Shown in pieces: positions 354 to 13,141 of a DNA stretch of 16,327 nucleotides. The notes under the pieces were generated by a model that had not been told where the DNA came from, did not search any database, and was given only the letters and a program-made list of their open reading frames with translations. Made by a program: the position numbers and the translations under genes. Where the stretch lies: assembly GCA_048938445.1 (NCBI GenBank), contig JBHLME010000101.1:1-16327 (forward strand). The letters run 5' to 3'. Source of the DNA: Promethearchaeota archaeon (GTDB lineage Archaea; Asgardarchaeota; Lokiarchaeia; Sigyniarchaeales; SOKP01). Every line of letters starts with the position of its first letter. The first letter of the stretch is position 1.

Positions 354-473
354 TCATTTGGTCTTTCCTCTTTCTATGTTTTGCTTCCGGTGTTTATACT
401 GCAATCGAAATACGACAGCAATTGCTCCGAGTATTGAGAAGATGATTAGGGCAACGATTTCAAATCCAGGAGA
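354..473 (-). other. PGF-CTERM/Loki-CTERM-like C-terminal protein-sorting signal
   Basis: SPGF + EIVALIIFSILGAIAVVF (TM) + RLQYKHRKQNIERGKTK (basic tail): the tripartite architecture of archaeosortase substrates. Confidence 0.8.
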
Positions 474-3400
474 GGCTGCCACAACAACATCCTTAGTTAC
501 TTGATGAGAATCACCATTTGCATCGGTTATTTTCAAGGTTACTTGATAAGTACCTTCAGTATTAAAAGTAACAGCTATTGTTGACAAGCCATAACCAGAC
601 TCATCCCAAACTTGATCGTTGTTCATGTCCCATTGAAAGAGATGTTGACTAATATCTCCATCTCCTAATGCACCGCTTACATCATCAAATATCAAATGAA
701 ATTCCACTTGAGGTTCTGGAGTTCCATCGATATAAAAATCAGCGACGGGAACTTTGTTGTTTACAGTGATATAACTTGTCTTTACTTCAATATCACTCTC
801 CAAATCGTTATCGGTAATGGTAAGGGTGATAGTATAGCTTCCAGGAGTATCATATTGATGAATGGGATTAATATCATTAGAAATCGGACTTCCATCACCA
901 AAATTCCATTCATATGTCGTTGGGGCATCCCCTGGTGTTCCCGTGAAGGTAAAGGTGACGTCTTCACTCATTCCGACGTTAGTAGAGCTTGCGACAAAAT
1001 CAGCAACAGGAATGATATTTGACACGGTAATATAATCCATTTTTATCTCAACGTCTTGATATAAATAGGAATCATAAACTGTCAAGGAAACCGTGTAAAT
1101 GCCTTCGCTTGAATACGACCAAATTGGATCCTGAAGCGTGCTATCAATCGTACCATCATTGTTGAAATCCCATTCAAACGTCGCTGGTCCGTAAACATAA
1201 AATCCCGCGTACATGAACTGTATCACGTCATTGATGTGAACCGAAGTCTGATCTGCTGAAAATTCTGCAATAACTATGGGAGGCATAACTTCAATGTAAT
1301 CAATCTTGGTTTCGGTATCTGTCTCCGAATCGCTATCGGTTATCGTTAATGACACGCTATAATATCCAAACATAGAATACGAATGTATCGGATTTACATC
1401 ATTAGATATGGGGGAGCCATCACCGAAATCCCATTGATACGTGACTGGGTTATCTCCTTGTGTGCCAGTAAACGTGAAAGTGATATCTTCATCCATTAAA
1501 ACAAATGTGGAGCTAGCAACAAAATCAGCATCGGGAACGATATTTGAGACAGAGATCAAGTCAATCTTGGTTTCAATTTCTTGGTTTAAATAACTATCAT
1601 ATATTGTCAATGAGACTGTATAAGTGCCCGCACTTGAATATGACCAAGTTGGATCTTGAAGATTACTATCAATTGTTCCGTCATTGTTGAAATCCCATTC
1701 AAACATCGGTGGTCCGTAGTCTACCATACCTATATACGTGAATTGAATCATATCATTAATATGAACTGATGTGAGATCCGCAGTGAAGTCTGCTATGACC
1801 ACGGGTGGCGAGACAGTAATGTAATCAGTTTTGGTTTCTGTATCAGTCTCTAAATCACCATCCGTAATCATTAATGACACGCTATACGTGCCGGCTGAGG
1901 AATATGAATATGTTGGATTAATATCATTAGAAATCGGACTTTCATCACCAAAATTCCATTCATATATCATTGGGGCATCCCCTGATGTTCCAGTGAAAGT
2001 GAAAATAATACCTTCATATTCGATAACATTTGTGGAACTAGCAACAAAATCAGCAACGGGAACAATATTAGATTCTACCGTTATATAATCTACTTTAATT
2101 TCTTGAGCGGAATCCAAGTCTGCATCAGTCACGGTGAGCGAAACCGTATAAATCCCATCTGATGAATAAGACCATATAGGATTTTGTTCTGTGCTGTCAA
2201 CAATGTCATCATCATCAAAATCCCATTCAAAAGTGGCAGGAGGTTGACCTATTATTCCCGTAAACGTAAATTGTATGGGTTCATCAACCTCAACATAAGT
2301 AAAGTCAGCTTCAAAATCTACTATTGGCACTGGTATCGCTAAAACCTCAATATCAGCCGAATTTGAATGACTATCTCCATCAAGATCTATAATTGTTAAA
2401 GAGACCGTGAAAGTTCCAACTGAAGAAAAAATATGAGTGGGATTGATTTCATTAGAGACGGGGGTTCCATCACCGAAATCCCATTCAAATGAATGTTCAG
2501 TTTCGAGACCATCACCTAGATATAAAGATTCGGGAAGTCTAAATTGAGCTGGAATACCCGTGTAAAATATTTGGGGATTTTTATAGACAACATTAGCAAT
2601 AAATGGTGCTGTTACCTCACACCATATAAAATGGATATCTCCCATATTTGCACCAACTACTTGGGGATTATAACAAGAATCACCAGCATCATCAGAGATG
2701 ATTTCGGAAGGACTCCATTCTCCTGATTGGGAATTCTTGAATGCATAGGTAACAACGAGACTAATCCCAGTGAATTCCGTCCATACTACATGTGCAAATT
2801 CTTCATCATCTATGTAAATAAATGCTTGATGAGCATAGGTTGAAGAAGTAATAGTCTCGATTGAATTCCATCCTGCTTGAGCATCTTTATACCTGTAAAA
2901 AACTTCTCGGATATTAGCTGGTGCTCCAGAATATCCGTCATTATCCCATGTTAAGTGAACATTTTCACTTCCATCCACATCAATTGACGGGTATACATAT
3001 TTTCCGTCATCTGGATTAGATACTACCTCTGAAGGAATCCATCCTGTCTGATGATCTCTGTATTTATAATATATCTTTGAAGAAAGAGACCCAGTATTAA
3101 AATTATCATATGCTAGATGTATGTCTCCATGATCACTTACAACAAACGAAAAAACTCCGAAATAAGGATCATTTTCGGGTAAAATTGTCTCTAAAGAACT
3201 CCATTCTCCTGATTGAGCATTTTTACACTTATAGAACAATTCACTAAAGTAAGTATATAAAACACTTTTTTTAGCCCATATCACGTGAACATTTCCATTA
3301 TAATCTATATCAATTCGAGGTAAATATAATGGTCCAAAAATTTCGGTTGATATAACCTCTAAAGTACTCCATTCTCCTGATTGAGCACTCTTACAAGTAT

Positions 3401-5456
3401 AATAAATATTGGTAGCATTCTTTGAAGCAAATAAATCCATATTTGACCATATTAAGTGAATATTACCATTATTATCAATTTCCATCTTATTATCGACACA
3501 ATCATCATTAAAATCAGTTGTTACCAGTTCTGTTACGCTCCATTCGTCAGATAGAGCATTTTTATATTTATAATATATATTAGAAGTTCCTAAAGAAGAA
3601 TCATATTCAATCCATGTAACATGTATTTTACCAGAAAGATCACATTTTATTGAAGTTGGATTTGAATAAAACAAATTTTCGGAAGATAAAACCTCCCAAG
3701 TCTCTTCTTCAAATAAGGAATTTATAATAGGTGTCTTATCTAAAGGAAAATTATCAATGTTATTTGAAGTTCCAGAAATAATGTATGGTGTGTCTCCAAT
3801 ATCATCCCGAGGAATATCTTGGTCACTACCGGTGTAGTCATCCCATCGATTTCCTTGAGTGCCATCATCCCATTGATTATTAGATCCACCATCATCTCGA
3901 GCATTGATACCATTATTAGTAAATGTATTTGAATATACTATAGAGGTACCGCATTGATCCAATAATACTCCGAAATCAGTATTATCATGAATATTGTTTC
4001 CAGAGATTTCATTATTGATTCCATTATCGATGGTAATTCCTATATCGTTTGATGAGAGTTCATTTCCAGAAATAATATTTCCATCACAATTATCATTTAA
4101 TATAATACCAGCTTCAAAACAATTAGAAATGGTATTACCCGAAGTAATCAAGTTATTATTGCTATTTTCAATGAAAATGCCATTTCCATTTCCGTTTCCA
4201 TCATTTATATCGTGAATGGTTGATCCCATAATCTTGATGTTTGAACAATCTAAAAGGAGGATACTATGCTCGAAATTGCCAGAAATATCACATTCTTCAA
4301 TGACAGCATTTTGAACGTTTTCTAATTTAATCGCTGCATCAATAACCGAAGATGTAGCCAAGTCACAATTCACTATCTTAAAATAAAAATCATTTCCAAT
4401 ATTGCTTATATGGATACTATATGCTTCACCACTAGAATCAATTATCAAATCTTGTATAAGTTTTGGTGTACTACTAGTAAAACCATCACCAGGAAAAGCG
4501 TCCCATCCGGGATCATCTTTCCCGTTTAGTTGAATTACTCCATATGTTGGCATCACATACCTTATTTCCTGACTTTTCACGGGTTCAGTGTTCCCATTAT
4601 TATCAACGCTATAATAGGAAATAGTTTTAGGACCGGGATTATTAGTATTAATAGTAAATGGAGCATTATCATAATTGATCCAAGCACCATCATCTATTTT
4701 ATAATTAGTATTTGCAATTCCTGAACCTTCACCATCAATAGCAGATAAAGTGAAGGAAGTGGATGAAGAAACGAAATTTGGCGCCACTTCTGGAATAAAT
4801 ATCAATTCGGTTGTAGGAGGTTCAAAGAAAAATACCTCACAATAGAAACAGTCAATGTCAACCCGACTTAATCCCCACATATCAGAATAAAATTCAATTC
4901 TCATATCATCTAAATCTTCTTGTCCATAATCCAAACCTTGGAATGGCATCATTGTCCATTCATCGTTTTTATAATTATGCTGAAAAGTATCACCGCCAAT
5001 GTGTAAAGAAACCAAAAAGTACATGGGTGAACCATATGTCATTGAATAAAAATGGAGATTAATTCGTGTAACTCTTTTTGAACCAAGAGAAATACTTCCC
5101 ATTGAAAATACATCCGTTCTTGGAACATTAACAGTGGAAATAAACTGTCCATCCGGAGATTGTTCATCAAGTAGGGACCAATGCTCTACTCCAATAGGTT
5201 CCCATGTATTTGGACCAAAATCTCCATCAGGGTAAATAATCTCTGAAGCTGATGTACGAGGGATAATTATTTCAGAATTATTTAATTTTAATAGGAAATC
5301 TAAATTTAATGTAGGATAAATCAAGAAGAATAAGAAAGAGATTCCGAATAAAACCAAAAAGAAGTAATTAACACGCTTTCTTTTTTTATTCTGGATCATC
5401 CTATAGGTGTTAGATGACTTCTTTCCCTCATTAACTAGGTACCAAATTTTTTTCAT
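354..5456 (-). CDS. Large cell-surface protein: N-terminal TM/signal, OmpL47-like Ig domain, NosD/right-handed beta-helix, 7-repeat beta-propeller-like region, 8 PKD domains, C-terminal PGF-type sorting signal
   Basis: Basic patch plus hydrophobic helix at aa ~25-50. SGIANTNYKID...YYSVDNNGNTE (OmpL47-type). Beta-helix repeats ending GNRWDDYTGSD...DIGDTPY...DNFPL (NosD type). Seven GxxHxxW...IYY...W repeats. Eight W[DN][FM]xD-type...GxYTVSLT PKD motifs. Terminal SPGF-TM-RLQYKHRK. An alternative start at 5399 (MIQNKKRKR) is possible. Confidence 0.93.
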   Translation of the reverse strand: MKKIWYLVNEGKKSSNTYRMIQNKKRKRVNYFFLVLFGISFLFFLIYPTLNLDFLLKLNNSEIIIPRTSASEIIYPDGDFGPNTWEPIGVEHWSLLDEQSPDGQFISTVNVPRTDVFSMGSISLGSKRVTRINLHFYSMTYGSPMYFLVSLHIGGDTFQHNYKNDEWTMMPFQGLDYGQEDLDDMRIEFYSDMWGLSRVDIDCFYCEVFFFEPPTTELIFIPEVAPNFVSSSTSFTLSAIDGEGSGIANTNYKIDDGAWINYDNAPFTINTNNPGPKTISYYSVDNNGNTEPVKSQEIRYVMPTYGVIQLNGKDDPGWDAFPGDGFTSSTPKLIQDLIIDSSGEAYSIHISNIGNDFYFKIVNCDLATSSVIDAAIKLENVQNAVIEECDISGNFEHSILLLDCSNIKIMGSTIHDINDGNGNGNGIFIENSNNNLITSGNTISNCFEAGIILNDNCDGNIISGNELSSNDIGITIDNGINNEISGNNIHDNTDFGVLLDQCGTSIVYSNTFTNNGINARDDGGSNNQWDDGTQGNRWDDYTGSDQDIPRDDIGDTPYIISGTSNNIDNFPLDKTPIINSLFEEETWEVLSSENLFYSNPTSIKCDLSGKIHVTWIEYDSSLGTSNIYYKYKNALSDEWSVTELVTTDFNDDCVDNKMEIDNNGNIHLIWSNMDLFASKNATNIYYTCKSAQSGEWSTLEVISTEIFGPLYLPRIDIDYNGNVHVIWAKKSVLYTYFSELFYKCKNAQSGEWSSLETILPENDPYFGVFSFVVSDHGDIHLAYDNFNTGSLSSKIYYKYRDHQTGWIPSEVVSNPDDGKYVYPSIDVDGSENVHLTWDNDGYSGAPANIREVFYRYKDAQAGWNSIETITSSTYAHQAFIYIDDEEFAHVVWTEFTGISLVVTYAFKNSQSGEWSPSEIISDDAGDSCYNPQVVGANMGDIHFIWCEVTAPFIANVVYKNPQIFYTGIPAQFRLPESLYLGDGLETEHSFEWDFGDGTPVSNEINPTHIFSSVGTFTVSLTIIDLDGDSHSNSADIEVLAIPVPIVDFEADFTYVEVDEPIQFTFTGIIGQPPATFEWDFDDDDIVDSTEQNPIWSYSSDGIYTVSLTVTDADLDSAQEIKVDYITVESNIVPVADFVASSTNVIEYEGIIFTFTGTSGDAPMIYEWNFGDESPISNDINPTYSYSSAGTYSVSLMITDGDLETDTETKTDYITVSPPVVIADFTADLTSVHINDMIQFTYIGMVDYGPPMFEWDFNNDGTIDSNLQDPTWSYSSAGTYTVSLTIYDSYLNQEIETKIDLISVSNIVPDADFVASSTFVLMDEDITFTFTGTQGDNPVTYQWDFGDGSPISNDVNPIHSYSMFGYYSVSLTITDSDSETDTETKIDYIEVMPPIVIAEFSADQTSVHINDVIQFMYAGFYVYGPATFEWDFNNDGTIDSTLQDPIWSYSSEGIYTVSLTVYDSYLYQDVEIKMDYITVSNIIPVADFVASSTNVGMSEDVTFTFTGTPGDAPTTYEWNFGDGSPISNDINPIHQYDTPGSYTITLTITDNDLESDIEVKTSYITVNNKVPVADFYIDGTPEPQVEFHLIFDDVSGALGDGDISQHLFQWDMNNDQVWDESGYGLSTIAVTFNTEGTYQVTLKITDANGDSHQVTKDVVVAASPGFEIVALIIFSILGAIAVVFRLQYKHRKQNIERGKTK
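480..2550 (-). repeat. Tandem array of 8 PKD domains arranged as (A-B)x4 with a 525-nt period
   Basis: The type-A motif (c/t)catcacc recurs at 892, 1417, 1942 and 2467, exactly 525 nt apart. The type-B tcccatt motif lies at 628, 1168, 1693 and 2221. Confidence 0.9.
2575..3700 (-). repeat. Seven ~55-aa repeats, probable 7-bladed beta-propeller
   Basis: Repeats GKIHVTW, GNIHLIW, GNVHVIW, GDIHLAY, ENVHLTW, EFAHVVW, GDIHFIW. DNA actccattctcctgattg recurs at 2712, 3198 and 3366. Confidence 0.75.
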
Positions 5457-7473: not shown

Positions 7474-8230
7474 TATTAATCCTTTTAATTCTCATTTCTT
7501 AGGGTTTATTTCTTTAATAGTGTTGCTTTCTGTGAAAATTAATTTTTTATTTGAATTTTAATCATTTTTTTTTAATTATATACAATATTTTTTAAGTGCG
7601 ATATATAAAGATAAATGGAGAAAAATTGAAATATCTTTTTTTATAAAATTTATTTTTATCAATTTAACTAACCAAAAGCGAGAATTGCTAATTATTGAAT
7701 ATATTTTAAGTCTAAAAAATTGTAATTTTTGAATTTTTAAACTTTTGAAAGCGTTAAAACTATTCTTCTTAAATTTTAAATCATTCATTTTAATTATTTC
7801 TCCAAATTCCATTTAATTGTTCAATTTTTTTATTTTTTTTTAAATGAATACCTTTAGAATATTTTTGGTAATTTGTAGTTTTATTTTATATATTAGAGTG
7901 TTATCAATTTGTAGAATTATTGATGGTTCATAATATCAATTTTTTATATAAAAATCACCAACTTTACTTGTTTTCTTTTAAAATTAAATGTTTATATGAG
8001 ATTTCAGTGCATATTTTTAAAAAAAAATGAATACATGGTTTTTTTTTATTCTTTGGACTAAATGATATTTATAATAAAGAATATATAAATCCTCTTTTTT
8101 TGTTGGATTTTTTTAGAAAAATTATTTGACAAATTTAAAAAACTATGATATTTAAGGTAAATTCTAGAAAAAAAAATCTAAGAATAATAATCAAATACTG
8201 TTTATAATTAAATAAATACGTGATAATTAC

Positions 8231-9704: not shown

Positions 9705-10700
9705 TTAATTTTGAGATAATAAATTAATTAAAGCACGGGGAATTTCTTTATAGTCTTTTACTGAATAAAATTTACCTTTACCAACCCTGGCTATTTCCCT
9801 ACAGGTTTCAATACCCCTATCAGCATCATTTTCCGCGGGAATTCCAATGACGTGTAATCTTGGATAGTTTTTTGCTAATTCCAAGGGATTTTCACCCCGA
9901 TTATAATTACCATCAGAAATTAATATACCAAATTGATTTTGGATATTTTGTCTAACTTTATTTAGTTCTTTTAAGCCCTTTTCCAAACCAATATGTATGT
10001 TTGTAAACCCAACTGCTTCAGAATCTAGGATTTCGTCAATGATTTCTTTTACAGTTTTTCTCTCGTCAATTTTTTTCAAGACCATCGCGGTTGAATTGAA
10101 CAAGATTATGCTGTAATCTTCTTTATCCATGTTATATGCCAATACAGATGTGGTGAGTGCGGCATTTAATAAGAGACGTCCATACATGCTTCCACTCGTG
10201 TCGAGAATCATTACAACTTTTCTTTTTTTCCTTTGTCTTTTGATTCCGAAAATATCTTGATAACTCAAAGTTTTATTGTTTATCTTTAAGGGATTATGTT
10301 GAATGGTCTCATCCAAGTCAAACTCGGGCATTCCAATCTCATATCTAGGAACAGTTTTTTTAAAGTGTCCTTTTATACCTTTACTCGTAATTTTCAAGGA
10401 CATCTTAATTATGCTTTGTCGGGCTAATCTCCTAAAGATATACTTGTATTTTTCCGAGATAGGCCTTCTTACAAAGAAATATACTTCAGGAACAAATGCA
10501 CTTGATTCTTCTGCTTTTTCTGAAAAGAATTTTACACCTTCTTCGCAATCAAGCGCGTCTGTAGCAGCATACACGTTTGACTTTAACATACCCATTATGG
10601 CTTCAAGATTTTTATACTGAATTGCCAGATAGGTCAATTCCTTGATTTCTTTATAATCCAGAGTATTTGCTAAATGCCTATAATAGTCTGGTTTTTTCAT
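9705..10700 (-). CDS. VWA (von Willebrand A) domain protein, MoxR partner; frame stays open upstream to ~10832
   Basis: Intact MIDAS: ILDTSGSM, GFTNI, LISDG. EFDLDETI is a CoxE/ChlD-like pre-VWA motif. Directly downstream of a MoxR gene. Confidence 0.9.
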   Translation of the reverse strand: MKKPDYYRHLANTLDYKEIKELTYLAIQYKNLEAIMGMLKSNVYAATDALDCEEGVKFFSEKAEESSAFVPEVYFFVRRPISEKYKYIFRRLARQSIIKMSLKITSKGIKGHFKKTVPRYEIGMPEFDLDETIQHNPLKINNKTLSYQDIFGIKRQRKKRKVVMILDTSGSMYGRLLLNAALTTSVLAYNMDKEDYSIILFNSTAMVLKKIDERKTVKEIIDEILDSEAVGFTNIHIGLEKGLKELNKVRQNIQNQFGILISDGNYNRGENPLELAKNYPRLHVIGIPAENDADRGIETCREIARVGKGKFYSVKDYKEIPRALINLLSQN

Positions 10701-10781
10701 TTTTTTACGCTTGATTTCAAAGCGTAAGATTTCTTTATCTGGAGGTCTGTCGGTGAGTCTTACGTGAAGCCGCTTATTCTC

Positions 10782-10828
10782 AATCTCTTCGGAATTCTCC
10801 TCCGAGAAATCATCGATTACTGAAAATC
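10782..10828 (-). promoter_or_regulatory. Candidate -1 programmed ribosomal frameshift signal (GAT TTT slip site plus downstream hairpin)
   Basis: Minus strand ...TCA GAT TTT CAG TAA. The -1 frame is open from here into the VWA ORF. Stem gatttc-tcgga/tccga-a-gagatt (10811-10782) starts 11 nt downstream. Confidence 0.6.
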
Positions 10829-11689
10829 TGATTTATTAAGGATAGCCAGAACAATGTCAGAAATTATTTCTGATTTCGTCTTATTGATGCCATCTTCAAG
10901 CTCAATTTTGTTATAGAGCGCCATTATTGCATTATTAATCCAACTTTTGGAACTTTCCATACTTCCTTCTTGATTCATAAGAGCAGCTAAATCAATTGCC
11001 CCCCTAATTGAACTTCCTCTTCGGAGTGTGATGTTATCTCGTGTAGATTGAATTATTTTTTGAGAAATTTGCGCAATTTTATCTCCAGATTCATCATTTA
11101 AACCTACTTCTTGCTTGATGATTTGGATTTCCTCTCCAGCTATTTGATAATCGAGCTTAGTCCACACAAATCTATCCTTTAAAGCCTCTCCCATTACAGT
11201 TACTCCAATGTGGGCTGTAGGATTTTGAGTTGCAATTACAAAAAAGCCATTATTTGCTGAAATTGTTTTAAGTTTTGGTATTTCAAGGATTTTTTCATCA
11301 AGTGCAGTAAGAAGAGCATTTTGTGTGCTTTCGGGCATTCTATTGATTTCATTAATAAACAAACATCCTCCTTTCTGCATGGCTGATGGGAGGGGGCCAT
11401 AGACATATGAATCTTCAACATATCCATTCGCAATAACTAAAGGTGGATCAAAATATCCTACTAATGTATGTTGCAGGATCTCTTCAGAGCAATCAACTCG
11501 ATAAAATTCTGAATCAAAATAAGATGAGACCGCTTTTGCGAGTGTGGTCTTACCAACACCTACTTCTCCTTCAATCAAGATGTTTTTCCCGACTGAATGA
11601 GCCAATACGATTTTTTGTAATTCTTCCGTTCTTCCAATGATTTTAAATTTTTGTTGTATTTCTTTTACTATTTCGGAGGGATTAACCAT
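10817..11689 (-). CDS. MoxR-family AAA+ ATPase
   Basis: Walker A GEVGVGKT, Walker B variant LFINEINR, QNALL, sensor-1 IATQNP, EALKDRF (Arg finger), SIRG (sensor 2). Confidence 0.92.
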   Translation of the reverse strand: MVNPSEIVKEIQQKFKIIGRTEELQKIVLAHSVGKNILIEGEVGVGKTTLAKAVSSYFDSEFYRVDCSEEILQHTLVGYFDPPLVIANGYVEDSYVYGPLPSAMQKGGCLFINEINRMPESTQNALLTALDEKILEIPKLKTISANNGFFVIATQNPTAHIGVTVMGEALKDRFVWTKLDYQIAGEEIQIIKQEVGLNDESGDKIAQISQKIIQSTRDNITLRRGSSIRGAIDLAALMNQEGSMESSKSWINNAIMALYNKIELEDGINKTKSEIISDIVLAILNKSDFQ

Positions 11690-11859: not shown

Positions 11860-13141
11860 TAATGCCTCTCTCTCTTTAAATACTTGAAAGACTAGATTAC
11901 AAGTACATGCAACTCGTTCAACAAGTTCAATTCAAGCATTCAGAGGTTTTAGACAAAGTGACGTTTCTCTCAAAAAATTTGTATAATATGGCGACTTACA
12001 TGGTTAGACAACGTTTTTTCAAGGATCGGTATTGGATTCGATATCACGAGTTATGGAACTTGCTAAAATCTCACGACTCGTATAAAAAACTACAAGATGC
12101 ATGCGGAGCTCATCCACCACAGCAAGTATTAAAACAAGTAGACCAAAACTTCAAGAGTTTCTTTAAAGCAATTAAAATATGGAAAATTGAACCATCTAAA
12201 TTCACGGGAAGACCTAAGCTTCCACGTTATAAGTGGAAGAATGGCCATAATATGGTCTATTTCACGGTATTACAATGTAGAATAAAAAATGGATTCGTCC
12301 TCCTCACGCAAAAGATGGAAAGGTTAGGATTTCCAAAAATAAAAACAACTTTGAAAACCTTGAAAGGAGTTCGTATCATCCCTTTTGGAGATCGATACAA
12401 TATTGAATTAATCTACGATTTCGAACCAAATAATTTGCACTTGAACGAGAATAACATCATTGGGATTGATTTAGGACTTAAGAACATCGTAACTATTTCA
12501 GATAACAGTGGAAACAAGCCATTGATTATCAAGGGCGGTGTAGTCAAGTCAATCAATCAATTCTATAATAAGAAATTGGCAAAATATAGATCCGAAAGTA
12601 AGATTTGCAATAATACTGAAGTAACAAGACATATCTTGAAGTTGCATCGAAAAAGAAATAATAAAATGAGAGATTTTTTTCATAAAACATCACGAAAAAT
12701 AGTCAATCACTGCATTTCTCACGATATTGGAACGATTATTATAGGATATAATGATGGGTGGAAGCACAAAACTAGTATTGGAAGGATGAACAACCAAAAC
12801 TTCGTTTCCATTCCCTTTTTAAAGCTTATCCGACAAATTGAGTATAAGTCCGATATGGTTGGAATCAGAGTAATTAGAACCTCTGAAGAATTTACTTCGC
12901 AAACTTGTTCTTCGTGTGGTGTAATTTACAAGTCAAATCGAAAATATCGAGGGCTTTATGTATGTAAAAAATGTGGATTGGTTTTAAATGCTGACGTGAA
13001 CGCATCGAGAAATATATTACGAAAAGGAGTCCCTGAATCCAGCTGGATAGGGGATAGAGGATGCTTGAACCATCCAGTAGTGTTGAAAGTTTGACGTCTT
13101 TTAACCTACGAATCTACGTCCTTTAGGGCATAGTAGTTCAA
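11860..13141 (+). mobile_element. IS200/IS605-family element, tnpB only (IS1341-like); left boundary uncertain
   Basis: tnpB with no tnpA. Right end gaatCTACGTCC-ttta-GGGCATAGtagTTCAA (hairpin 13114-13133, ending TCAA at 13141). The left end was not resolved. Confidence 0.7.
11907..13094 (+). CDS. tnpB: RNA-guided endonuclease TnpB (IS200/IS605 OrfB) with rearranged RuvC-II
   Basis: KNLYN, RPKLPRYK, RuvC-I GIDLG (D188), IIIGYNDGWK (G280), EEFTSQTCSSCG (E327), CKKCG zinc finger, NADVNASRNI (D363). Confidence 0.95.
   Translation: MQLVQQVQFKHSEVLDKVTFLSKNLYNMATYMVRQRFFKDRYWIRYHELWNLLKSHDSYKKLQDACGAHPPQQVLKQVDQNFKSFFKAIKIWKIEPSKFTGRPKLPRYKWKNGHNMVYFTVLQCRIKNGFVLLTQKMERLGFPKIKTTLKTLKGVRIIPFGDRYNIELIYDFEPNNLHLNENNIIGIDLGLKNIVTISDNSGNKPLIIKGGVVKSINQFYNKKLAKYRSESKICNNTEVTRHILKLHRKRNNKMRDFFHKTSRKIVNHCISHDIGTIIIGYNDGWKHKTSIGRMNNQNFVSIPFLKLIRQIEYKSDMVGIRVIRTSEEFTSQTCSSCGVIYKSNRKYRGLYVCKKCGLVLNADVNASRNILRKGVPESSWIGDRGCLNHPVVLKV

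Follow-up and report, generated by a model that had tools for sequence, protein, structure and literature searches.

Asgard archaeal MoxR-class ATPases are probably joined to their VWA adaptors by -1 ribosomal frameshifting

Pairs of a MoxR AAA+ ATPase and a VWA adaptor are known from NorQ-NorD, CbbQ-CbbO and RavA-ViaA, and in these the two proteins are separately initiated. In dnaX of Escherichia coli, a -1 frameshift yields two versions of an AAA+ subunit, tau and gamma, from one gene and at a fixed ratio in the ring complex. Frameshift stimulators that depend on a protein are known in RNA viruses, namely cardiovirus 2A and arterivirus nsp1beta, while to our knowledge very few programmed frameshifts have been described in archaea. 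The nearest parallel to the locus studied here is the frameshifted chlD gene, in which, according to the main texts of two reports (PMC3711429, PMC9227772), a -1 shift on a poly-A run yields two chelatase subunits, the small one and the medium one, with a reporter-verified efficiency of up to 63%, in six genera of which two, Methanocaldococcus and Methanococcus, are archaeal. Here we analyze a MoxR-like ATPase and VWA gene pair (positions 9705 to 11689) of a Promethearchaeota archaeon, carried by contig JBHLME010000101.1; the whole stretch of DNA that was analyzed, hereafter the window, comprises 16,327 nucleotides (nt). With a probability of roughly 80%, we read the two open reading frames (ORFs) as a single gene decoded by -1 ribosomal frameshifting.

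The proposed arrangement resembles frameshifted chlD in several respects: termination would produce an AAA+-only protein and a -1 shift at the domain boundary an AAA+-linker-VWA protein, the two parts are annotated as adjacent genes, and in-frame fusions are found in other organisms. Compared with chlD as the main texts of those reports present it, on the other hand, the locus differs in its ATPase, which is of the MoxR class with no CobN/ChlH found in the genome, in its U-run slip site (N_NNU_UUU) in place of a poly-A run, in its kink-turn-like candidate stimulator and in its Asgard archaeal host. Judged from sequence, it is a locus that would work like chlD yet fails chlD membership, a chlD-type ATPase-plus-adaptor design in a different ATPase class and phylum. 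With the MoxR/VWA pairs it shares a MoxR-type AAA+ ring ATPase encoded beside a MIDAS-bearing VWA protein, but it lacks a conserved start for the adaptor frame, which would be linked to the ATPase through recoding and, in some relatives, is linked to it by true fusion. Unlike in dnaX, the frameshift product would be the longer of the two and not the shorter, and slip site and stimulators differ. If the archaeal protein L7Ae binds downstream, a protein-RNA complex would set the frameshift rate as in the cardiovirus 2A and arterivirus nsp1beta cases, although the element would be cellular and archaeal and the candidate protein a component of ribosomes and small nucleolar ribonucleoproteins.

Both ORFs lie on the minus strand, as do all elements of the locus described below. 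The zero-frame ORF (10817-11689) encodes the 290-residue MoxR-like ATPase and ends in TCA GAT TTT CAG TAA. This end contains the proposed slippery heptamer A_GAU_UUU (10823-10829), with GAU in the P site and UUU in the A site; the ATPase stop TAA (10817-10819) stands one codon past the slip codon, and two consecutive TAA stops (10833-10838) close the -1 frame just upstream of the slip site. The VWA frame, which is -1 relative to the ATPase, is open from 10832 and runs stop-to-stop over 375 codons (9705-10832), encoding a helical domain and a VWA domain with the MIDAS metal-site motif D-x-S-x-S (DTSGS, 10188-10202). No ATG, GTG or TTG occurs in this frame until the ATG at 10698-10700, the start that an ORF finder would choose for a VWA protein of 331 residues (9705-10700) and one that is not conserved. 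The gap between the ATPase stop and this ATG (10701-10816) is linker-coding in the -1 frame: a disordered, acidic segment precedes the first helix of the adaptor helical domain. A fusion slipping at Phe289 would join 289 residues to the C-terminal 372 residues of the VWA frame, 661 in all. An initial reading of this DNA, made without database searches (the sequence-only reading), had described the same ATPase end, phase and absence of starts, the same fusion length and a peptide for the start-less stretch, all of which our analysis reproduces; it had also set a gap GC content of 41% against about 17% in intergenic DNA, and a recount gives 41.4% (48/116 nt), a value that is coding-like here, against 16.8% at 7501-8220.

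Orthologous loci were drawn from 61 related genomes and from a species-representative genome collection, in which the best 80 of 154 stretches encoding a relative were used. Removal of 20 duplicates and of one locus without the ATPase (L026) left 89 distinct loci, all of the window's order: 85 of the window's own family (f1; such labels denote families) and four of a sister family. The VWA frame is in -1 phase in all 89, and the frames overlap by 10-85 nt, with the 16 nt of the window found in 57. A phylum-wide pool of 149 loci, from which L170 was dropped because its VWA match is not adjacent to the ATPase, gave 148 scorable loci with 19 family labels; the phase is -1 in 143 of them and +1 in the remaining five (four of f32, one of f23). 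The recurrence of the phase in 89/89 and 143/148 loci makes the arrangement more than chance. The sequence-only reading had named conservation of the phase as a check, and among the orthologues the phase is kept and not random.

The adaptor frame of these relatives has no common start. In 55 of the 89 loci, the stretch between the -1-frame stop and the point 125 nt beyond the ATPase stop contains no ATG, GTG or TTG, and the starts that are present elsewhere are scattered over 26 different combinations of position and codon. With the slip-site Phe as the origin of the count, canonical starts first appear at a median of codon 55, and beyond codon 45 in 55/89. The window's ATG (at +119) is found in a single locus of the 89, and the aligned residue is Lys in 64% of the 85 f1 sequences. 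Over residues 1-375 of the -1 ORF, orthologues are 70-89% identical to it.

The motif N_NNU_UUU is invariant at the homologous site (89/89). The heptamers there are GGATTTT in 72 loci, AGATTTT, the form of the window, in 13, TGATTTT in two, and CCATTTT and AAATTTT in one each. A -1-frame TGA stands immediately before the TTT in L018 and L020, and the zero-frame stop follows the TTT directly in 11/89 and after one sense codon in 78/89; GAU|UUU is therefore the only common window for the shift. The conserved GAT-TTT proposed in the sequence-only reading thus holds for the invariant U run, while the usual heptamer is G_GAU_UUU and the A_GAU_UUU of the window is less ideal; that reading had itself called the heptamer an imperfect X_XXY_YYZ, and the P site A_GAU is indeed non-canonical. 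G_GAU_UUU is a recognized -1 site of eukaryotic RNA viruses, and one report describes it as a typical slippery motif for this shift (PMC11050907).

Across the phylum, one heptamer is replaced by another at a fixed place, as selection for tandem tRNA slippage predicts. G_GAU_UUU or A_GAU_UUU is found in families f1, f13, f19, f21, f26 and f29; A_AAU_UUU or A_AAU_UUC in f2-like, f9, f11, f14, f15, f17 and f20; U_UUU_UUC or U_UUU_UUU in f10, f19 and f2-like; U_UUU_UUA in f27 and f19; G_GGU_UUU in f13 and f30; and C_CCU_UUU in f2-like. A fully canonical X_XXY_YYZ occurs somewhere in the overlap zone of 52 of the 143 -1 loci, the other 91 having the A-site triplet only. For eight f1 loci (L014, L019, L024 and L025 among them) the canonical heptamer is a second, upstream U_UUA_AAC/U, which may be chance in AT-rich sequence.

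If ribosomes enter the VWA frame at the slip site, the gap should be read as protein, and several measures agree with this. Over 85 sequences, entropies at the three codon positions are 0.51/0.37/1.04 for gap codons 2-42 and 0.48/0.25/1.24 for the rest of the VWA ORF. The ratio of nonsynonymous to synonymous differences (pN/pS, from 600 random sequence pairs, given alone because synonymous sites are saturated) is 0.25 for gap codons 8-43, 0.21 for codons 17-43 and 0.18 for the VWA body in the -1 frame, against 1.22 and 1.48 for the same gap nucleotides in the other two frames. By this measure the gap is under purifying selection in the VWA frame only, and its amino-acid conservation, another check set by the sequence-only reading, is borne out. 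In an AlphaFold model of the -1 ORF (375 residues, 12-sequence alignment, mean predicted local distance difference test score, pLDDT, of 71.5), residues 1-27 have pLDDT below 50 and form a predicted disordered acidic linker, and the last third of the gap falls in a well-predicted helix (residues 32-42, block pLDDT 87) with which the helical domain opens. A start at Met45, encoded by the ATG at 10700, would therefore remove part of the conserved fold.

Natural fusions of the two proteins exist. A word-indexed search for longer, fused homologues found none, a blank that reflects a sensitivity limit because an exhaustive profile search with hidden Markov models did find them. This search covered 1.84 billion representative proteins and returned 1990 matches at an E-value of 0.001 or less; among the best 150 of these are many proteins of 563-711 residues that match through their C-terminal part. 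Pfam analysis of 12 matches placed AAA_5 and VWA on one chain in nine (P0027, P0030, P0034, P0037, P0038, P0051, P0054, P0057 and P0062), which are all nine of the long matches tested, and a VWA domain without the ATPase in three (P0026, P0120 and P0133). In P0027 (711 residues), the match to residues 3-289 of the window's ATPase (52% identity) stops exactly at the slip-site Phe, and positions 392-706 align with residues 49-372 of the -1 ORF at 32% identity; P0030 aligns with both ORFs in the same manner. A search with P0027 gave matches at an E-value of 1e-30 or lower in 211 of the 251 genomes sampled from the phylum, mostly through the ATPase part.

A further set of fusions comes from family f25, whose seven loci comprise five in-frame fusions (L126-L130, genus g52) and two loci in +1 phase (L131 and L132). 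The in-frame genes are 717-732 codons long, and their two parts meet at a tract of six or seven T, where a -1 slip would yield the short form instead; no hairpin was seen by eye beside this joint, in five loci that are too few to weigh. By these alignments, the AAA-linker-VWA chain is a natural architecture of the family, joined at the residue where the window's frames meet. The sequence-only reading had counted in-frame orthologues as evidence against recoding. Such fusions do occur in f25 and among metagenome proteins of unknown origin, and they support a fused product without refuting recoding, because none is found among the 89 close orthologues. Altogether the VWA frame is +1 in seven loci (L164, L165, L167 and L177 of f32, L135 of f23, and L131 and L132 of f25). 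Six of these, all except L132, have UUU UUU CGN shortly before the stop. They could be explained by +1 frameshifting at UUU_C with a slow Arg codon, by sequencing errors or by pseudogenes.

The identity of the two proteins was established by profile and structure-based searches. The ATPase ORF matches AAA_5 (1.7e-20, 73.9 bits) and AAA_3 (6.1e-19) in Pfam, and its best single-domain relative of solved structure is MoxR 2r44 (7.7e-14), followed by NorQ and CbbQ. The second ORF matches VWA (3.8e-09) and also VWA_2 and VWA_CoxE; the MIDAS residues D211, S213, G214 and S215 are invariant in our orthologue alignment (A1), and a fold search with the VWA model retrieved only generic VWA/MIDAS domains, including those of NorD (from NorQD complexes) and Rea1. 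On these matches the ATPase is assigned to the MoxR class and not to the ChlI/ChlD chelatases, and the locus to the MoxR-VWA class. A chelatase identity was considered and rejected: Mg_chelatase (PF01078) reaches 23.3 bits and no stretch passes, while TIGR02031, for which the cut-off is 499.55, reaches 18.8 bits. The large subunit CobN/ChlH (PF02514) gave no match in this genome, which is 96.5% complete, while positive controls matched.

The predicted fusion also resembles midasin (Rea1/Mdn1), whose single chain likewise combines AAA_5 modules with an acidic linker and, at the C-terminus, a MIDAS domain. Midasin was rejected as a special relative. The top solved-structure match is a midasin whose low E-value is the sum of six AAA_5 repeats and indicates no special relationship; taken singly, the best of these repeats reaches 34 bits, against 54.9 bits for MoxR 2r44. 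Separately, nearly every genome encodes a paralogue of about 830-860 residues with a C-terminal VWA domain that is about 24% identical and without an AAA+ domain (for example G000:C198:7092-8084); P0133 is of this kind.

Downstream of the slip site lies a conserved hairpin with a kink-turn (K-turn)-like signature (10778-10816), as judged from its fold, its invariant letters and covariation. We propose a C helix of U10816-A10778 and C10815-G10779, a GAU bulge (10814-10812), tandem G.A pairs (G10811.A10780 and A10810.G10781) and a stem-loop (10809-10782). The conserved element starts 6 nt past the U run. The bulged hairpin that had been noticed from 11 nt past the slip site corresponds to the fold of lowest energy for 10776-10818 (-12.6 kcal/mol), in which a 13-bp helix interrupted by one bulge starts at the 11th nt past the U run. 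Across f1, two blocks past the slip, codons 1-7 and 14-16, have frozen synonymous sites, and these blocks are the two arms of the hairpin. A ten-pair, hand-specified structure was scored on the 85-sequence alignment A2: 93.0% of cells are standard pairs, a share that drops to 36.6-71.0% once the 3' partners are displaced by 1-3 columns, five of the ten pairs have compensatory changes on both sides, and the covariation score was matched by none of 500 shuffles. RNAalifold applied to the whole 180-nt junction found only a 5-bp conserved stem (-4.8 kcal/mol). The letters that are invariant in the 85 sequences (U-C paired with G-A beside the bulge, the GAU bulge, and G-A facing G-A) are exactly those needed by a K-turn, which would also account for the fixation of ATC, a rare codon for Ile, and of GAG for Glu. 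From this pattern, the downstream hairpin is a candidate K-turn stimulator. No Rfam family came near its gathering score for the element (best E-value 2.7).

In the other families we scanned for a GA-stem-loop-stem-GAU/AAU-GA pattern with a stem of at least 4 bp, in which the order is reversed with respect to f1. It was found in 27 of 64 non-f1 loci and under 11 of 18 family labels, starting 6-12 nt past the U run (mode 7-8). The stems differ wholly between families while the flanks are constant, as in GGAGG/CCUCC, GGGAAUUC/GAAUUCCC and AGGGAGCUG/CAGCUCUCU. By eye, the closing pair is G-C in 17 of the 27 matching loci; a stricter scan that demands this pair retrieved 19/64 loci and missed many cases. 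Family f27 (L138, L140, L172 and L176) presents a different picture: U_UUU_UUA is followed 5-8 nt on by a perfectly conserved plain hairpin of 8-9 bp, with the core CCCGAG/CUCGGG, a loop that varies between genomes and no GAUGA signature. In sequencing run X1, the summed contig depth rises from 9.7 to about 1400 across 10796-10837, a span that takes in the slip site and the hairpin's 5' arm, with many short contigs carrying 3-5 differences that probably come from other community members; these data suggest nucleotide-level conservation of the recoding element.

Several observations weigh against the frameshift reading or its K-turn component. The window's heptamer A_GAU_UUU is a minority form (13/89) with poor P-site re-pairing. 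Taken alone, its hairpin is modest against shuffled sequences (z of -1.62, with 13/200 shuffles folding as well), and the proposed C helix has only 2 bp in the window's family. In the other families 37/64 loci fall outside the strict K-turn pattern, and the background for that pattern (95 of 17,900 60-nt windows of the same loci, 0.53%) comes from general sequence and so overstates the enrichment, as GAUGA and GA also encode Asp-Glu and Asp in an acidic linker. Related sequences, moreover, are not independent samples in any of these counts. Two further observations of this kind favor the strongest rival, in which ribosomes terminate and reinitiate on the ATC of UAAUC, or on another non-AUG start, to make a separate VWA protein with its linker and no fusion: the ATC of TAATC is nearly invariant in f1 and can be read as a near-cognate restart, and a UUG or AUG overlaps the stop in L133, L139, L162, L163, L166, L168 and L122. 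Reinitiation would also account for the phase, since -1 is the outcome of a 1-nt overlap of stop and start, the geometry of the common UAAUG overlap, and for the third base of the ATC, invariant in 85/85 f1 members although Ile has three codons. The hairpin offers another explanation for that C, which pairs there with a G that is just as frozen. In four of the 89 loci the stop is UAG (tail CAA TAG), so that the overlapping codon starts with G and is not ATC, and the families of the same order overlap ACG, AAG, GAG, AGC, ACT, GGT, AAT or GAC, with no common near-cognate. There is no Shine-Dalgarno-like motif before the site, and reinitiation leaves the invariant U run, the canonical heptamers of sister families and the fusion joint at Phe unexplained. 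We consider it unlikely as an account of the locus; ordinary translational coupling may coexist in the few families with a UUG or AUG at the stop.

The same 661-residue product could arise if RNA polymerase added one U in the T run, so that the frames would already be fused in the mRNA. Such transcriptional slippage fits a recoding site that is always a run of four to eight T and a junction that switches between -1, in-frame and +1 among families at this run; frameshifted chlD, as described in the main text of one report, uses long A runs with an efficiency that scales with run length (PMC3711429). Heptamers in which X and Y differ (A_AAU_UUU, C_CCU_UUU, G_GGU_UUU and G_GAU_UUU) fit tandem tRNA re-pairing better, and a structured element 6-12 nt downstream is a hallmark of ribosomal frameshifting. 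The run has only 4-5 T in 85/85 f1 members, and homopolymer slippage sites are typically longer than this. Polymerase slippage is accordingly a less likely explanation still than reinitiation. Least probable of all, to the point of being negligible, is a split caused by misassembly or by the recent breakage of a fusion gene, in spite of a source that is metagenome-assembled (256 contigs, 96.5% complete, 8% contamination), of homopolymer runs being error-prone and of the in-frame fusions of f25. No RNA sequencing run was found to contain this stretch. When contigs from four DNA runs of two studies were aligned to 10600-11000, no indel was listed: one from a different study (X3 record 10) matches 10647-11000 without a single difference or gap, and another (X5 record 17) covers 10612-10836 with 0 differences. 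The X3 contig thus gives no sign of the missing base that the sequence-only reading had raised as a concern, and the split is retained. It is common to 89 distinct assemblies, and both halves and the linker are under purifying selection in relatives that diverge down to about 45% identity, which argues against a pseudogene. The fusion by frameshifting first proposed from the sequence is thus supported by comparison, and the refutation tests that were run did not overturn it.

Mechanistically, the frameshift reading would operate as follows. Most ribosomes would end at the UAA at 10819-10817 and release the 290-residue ATPase. We infer that a fraction slips one base back with tRNA-Asp and tRNA-Phe on A_GAU_UUU (10829-10823), the Phe tRNA re-pairing perfectly on U_UU; these ribosomes would then read the acidic linker, the helical domain and the MIDAS-bearing VWA domain and complete a 661-residue ATPase-linker-adaptor. 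The conserved hairpin most likely promotes the slip, and may do so bound by the archaeal K-turn protein L7Ae, for which this genome has two genes of the family. This K-turn/L7Ae mechanism is a tentative proposal, to which we give distinctly less credence than to frameshifting itself. The short form would build the AAA+ ring and the long form would join it as a subunit bearing the substrate-binding VWA arm. By analogy with chlD, the efficiency of recoding would set the ratio of ring to adaptor subunits.

The surroundings of the locus gave no clue to a substrate in the form of a conserved neighbor: within the flanks of the 89 loci, Nre is found in 16, MoeA in 21 and TnpB in one. The presence of these three genes near the locus in the window is in keeping with an archaeal origin. 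In the window, a gene for a TnpB-family RNA-guided endonuclease (11907-13094, plus strand; NF040570, 1.5e-62) adjoins the ATPase start, and it is taken as a recent insertion because it lies beside the locus in only 1/89 relatives. The region 7501-8220, between the Nre gene and a small winged-helix ORF, is an unusually long piece of intergenic DNA here (720 bp, 16.8% GC), and a 1700-residue ORF (354-5456, minus strand) takes up a third of the window.

In the full-text literature, which leaves most subscription journals outside its coverage, we found no published frameshift of this kind in Asgard archaea or in MoxR- or midasin-type proteins. From the loci compared here, the predicted event is Asgard-wide and not confined to this genome, and it appears to be conserved over much of the phylum closest to eukaryotes. 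The annotation of a widespread gene pair would change accordingly, to one gene with two products whose second ORF has no start of its own, and the principle known from chlD, under which the subunits of an AAA+ machine are made in a ratio set by recoding, would be extended to the MoxR class. The in-frame, -1 and +1 versions of one junction provide material for studying how recoding sites are gained and lost. It is possible, if rather doubtful at present, that throughout the Asgard archaea an L7Ae-bound K-turn acts as a protein-dependent roadblock that sets the -1 rate, at a junction that has switched repeatedly between -1, +1 and in-frame on one U tract. If this is true, it would be the first recoding event conserved throughout an archaeal phylum and the first cellular frameshift stimulator in archaea that depends on a trans-acting factor, in effect a frameshift switch that occurs in nature and responds to a protein. 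The balance between plain ATPase and ATPase-adaptor would in that case depend on the free L7Ae pool, and in this way on the state of ribosome production in the cell.

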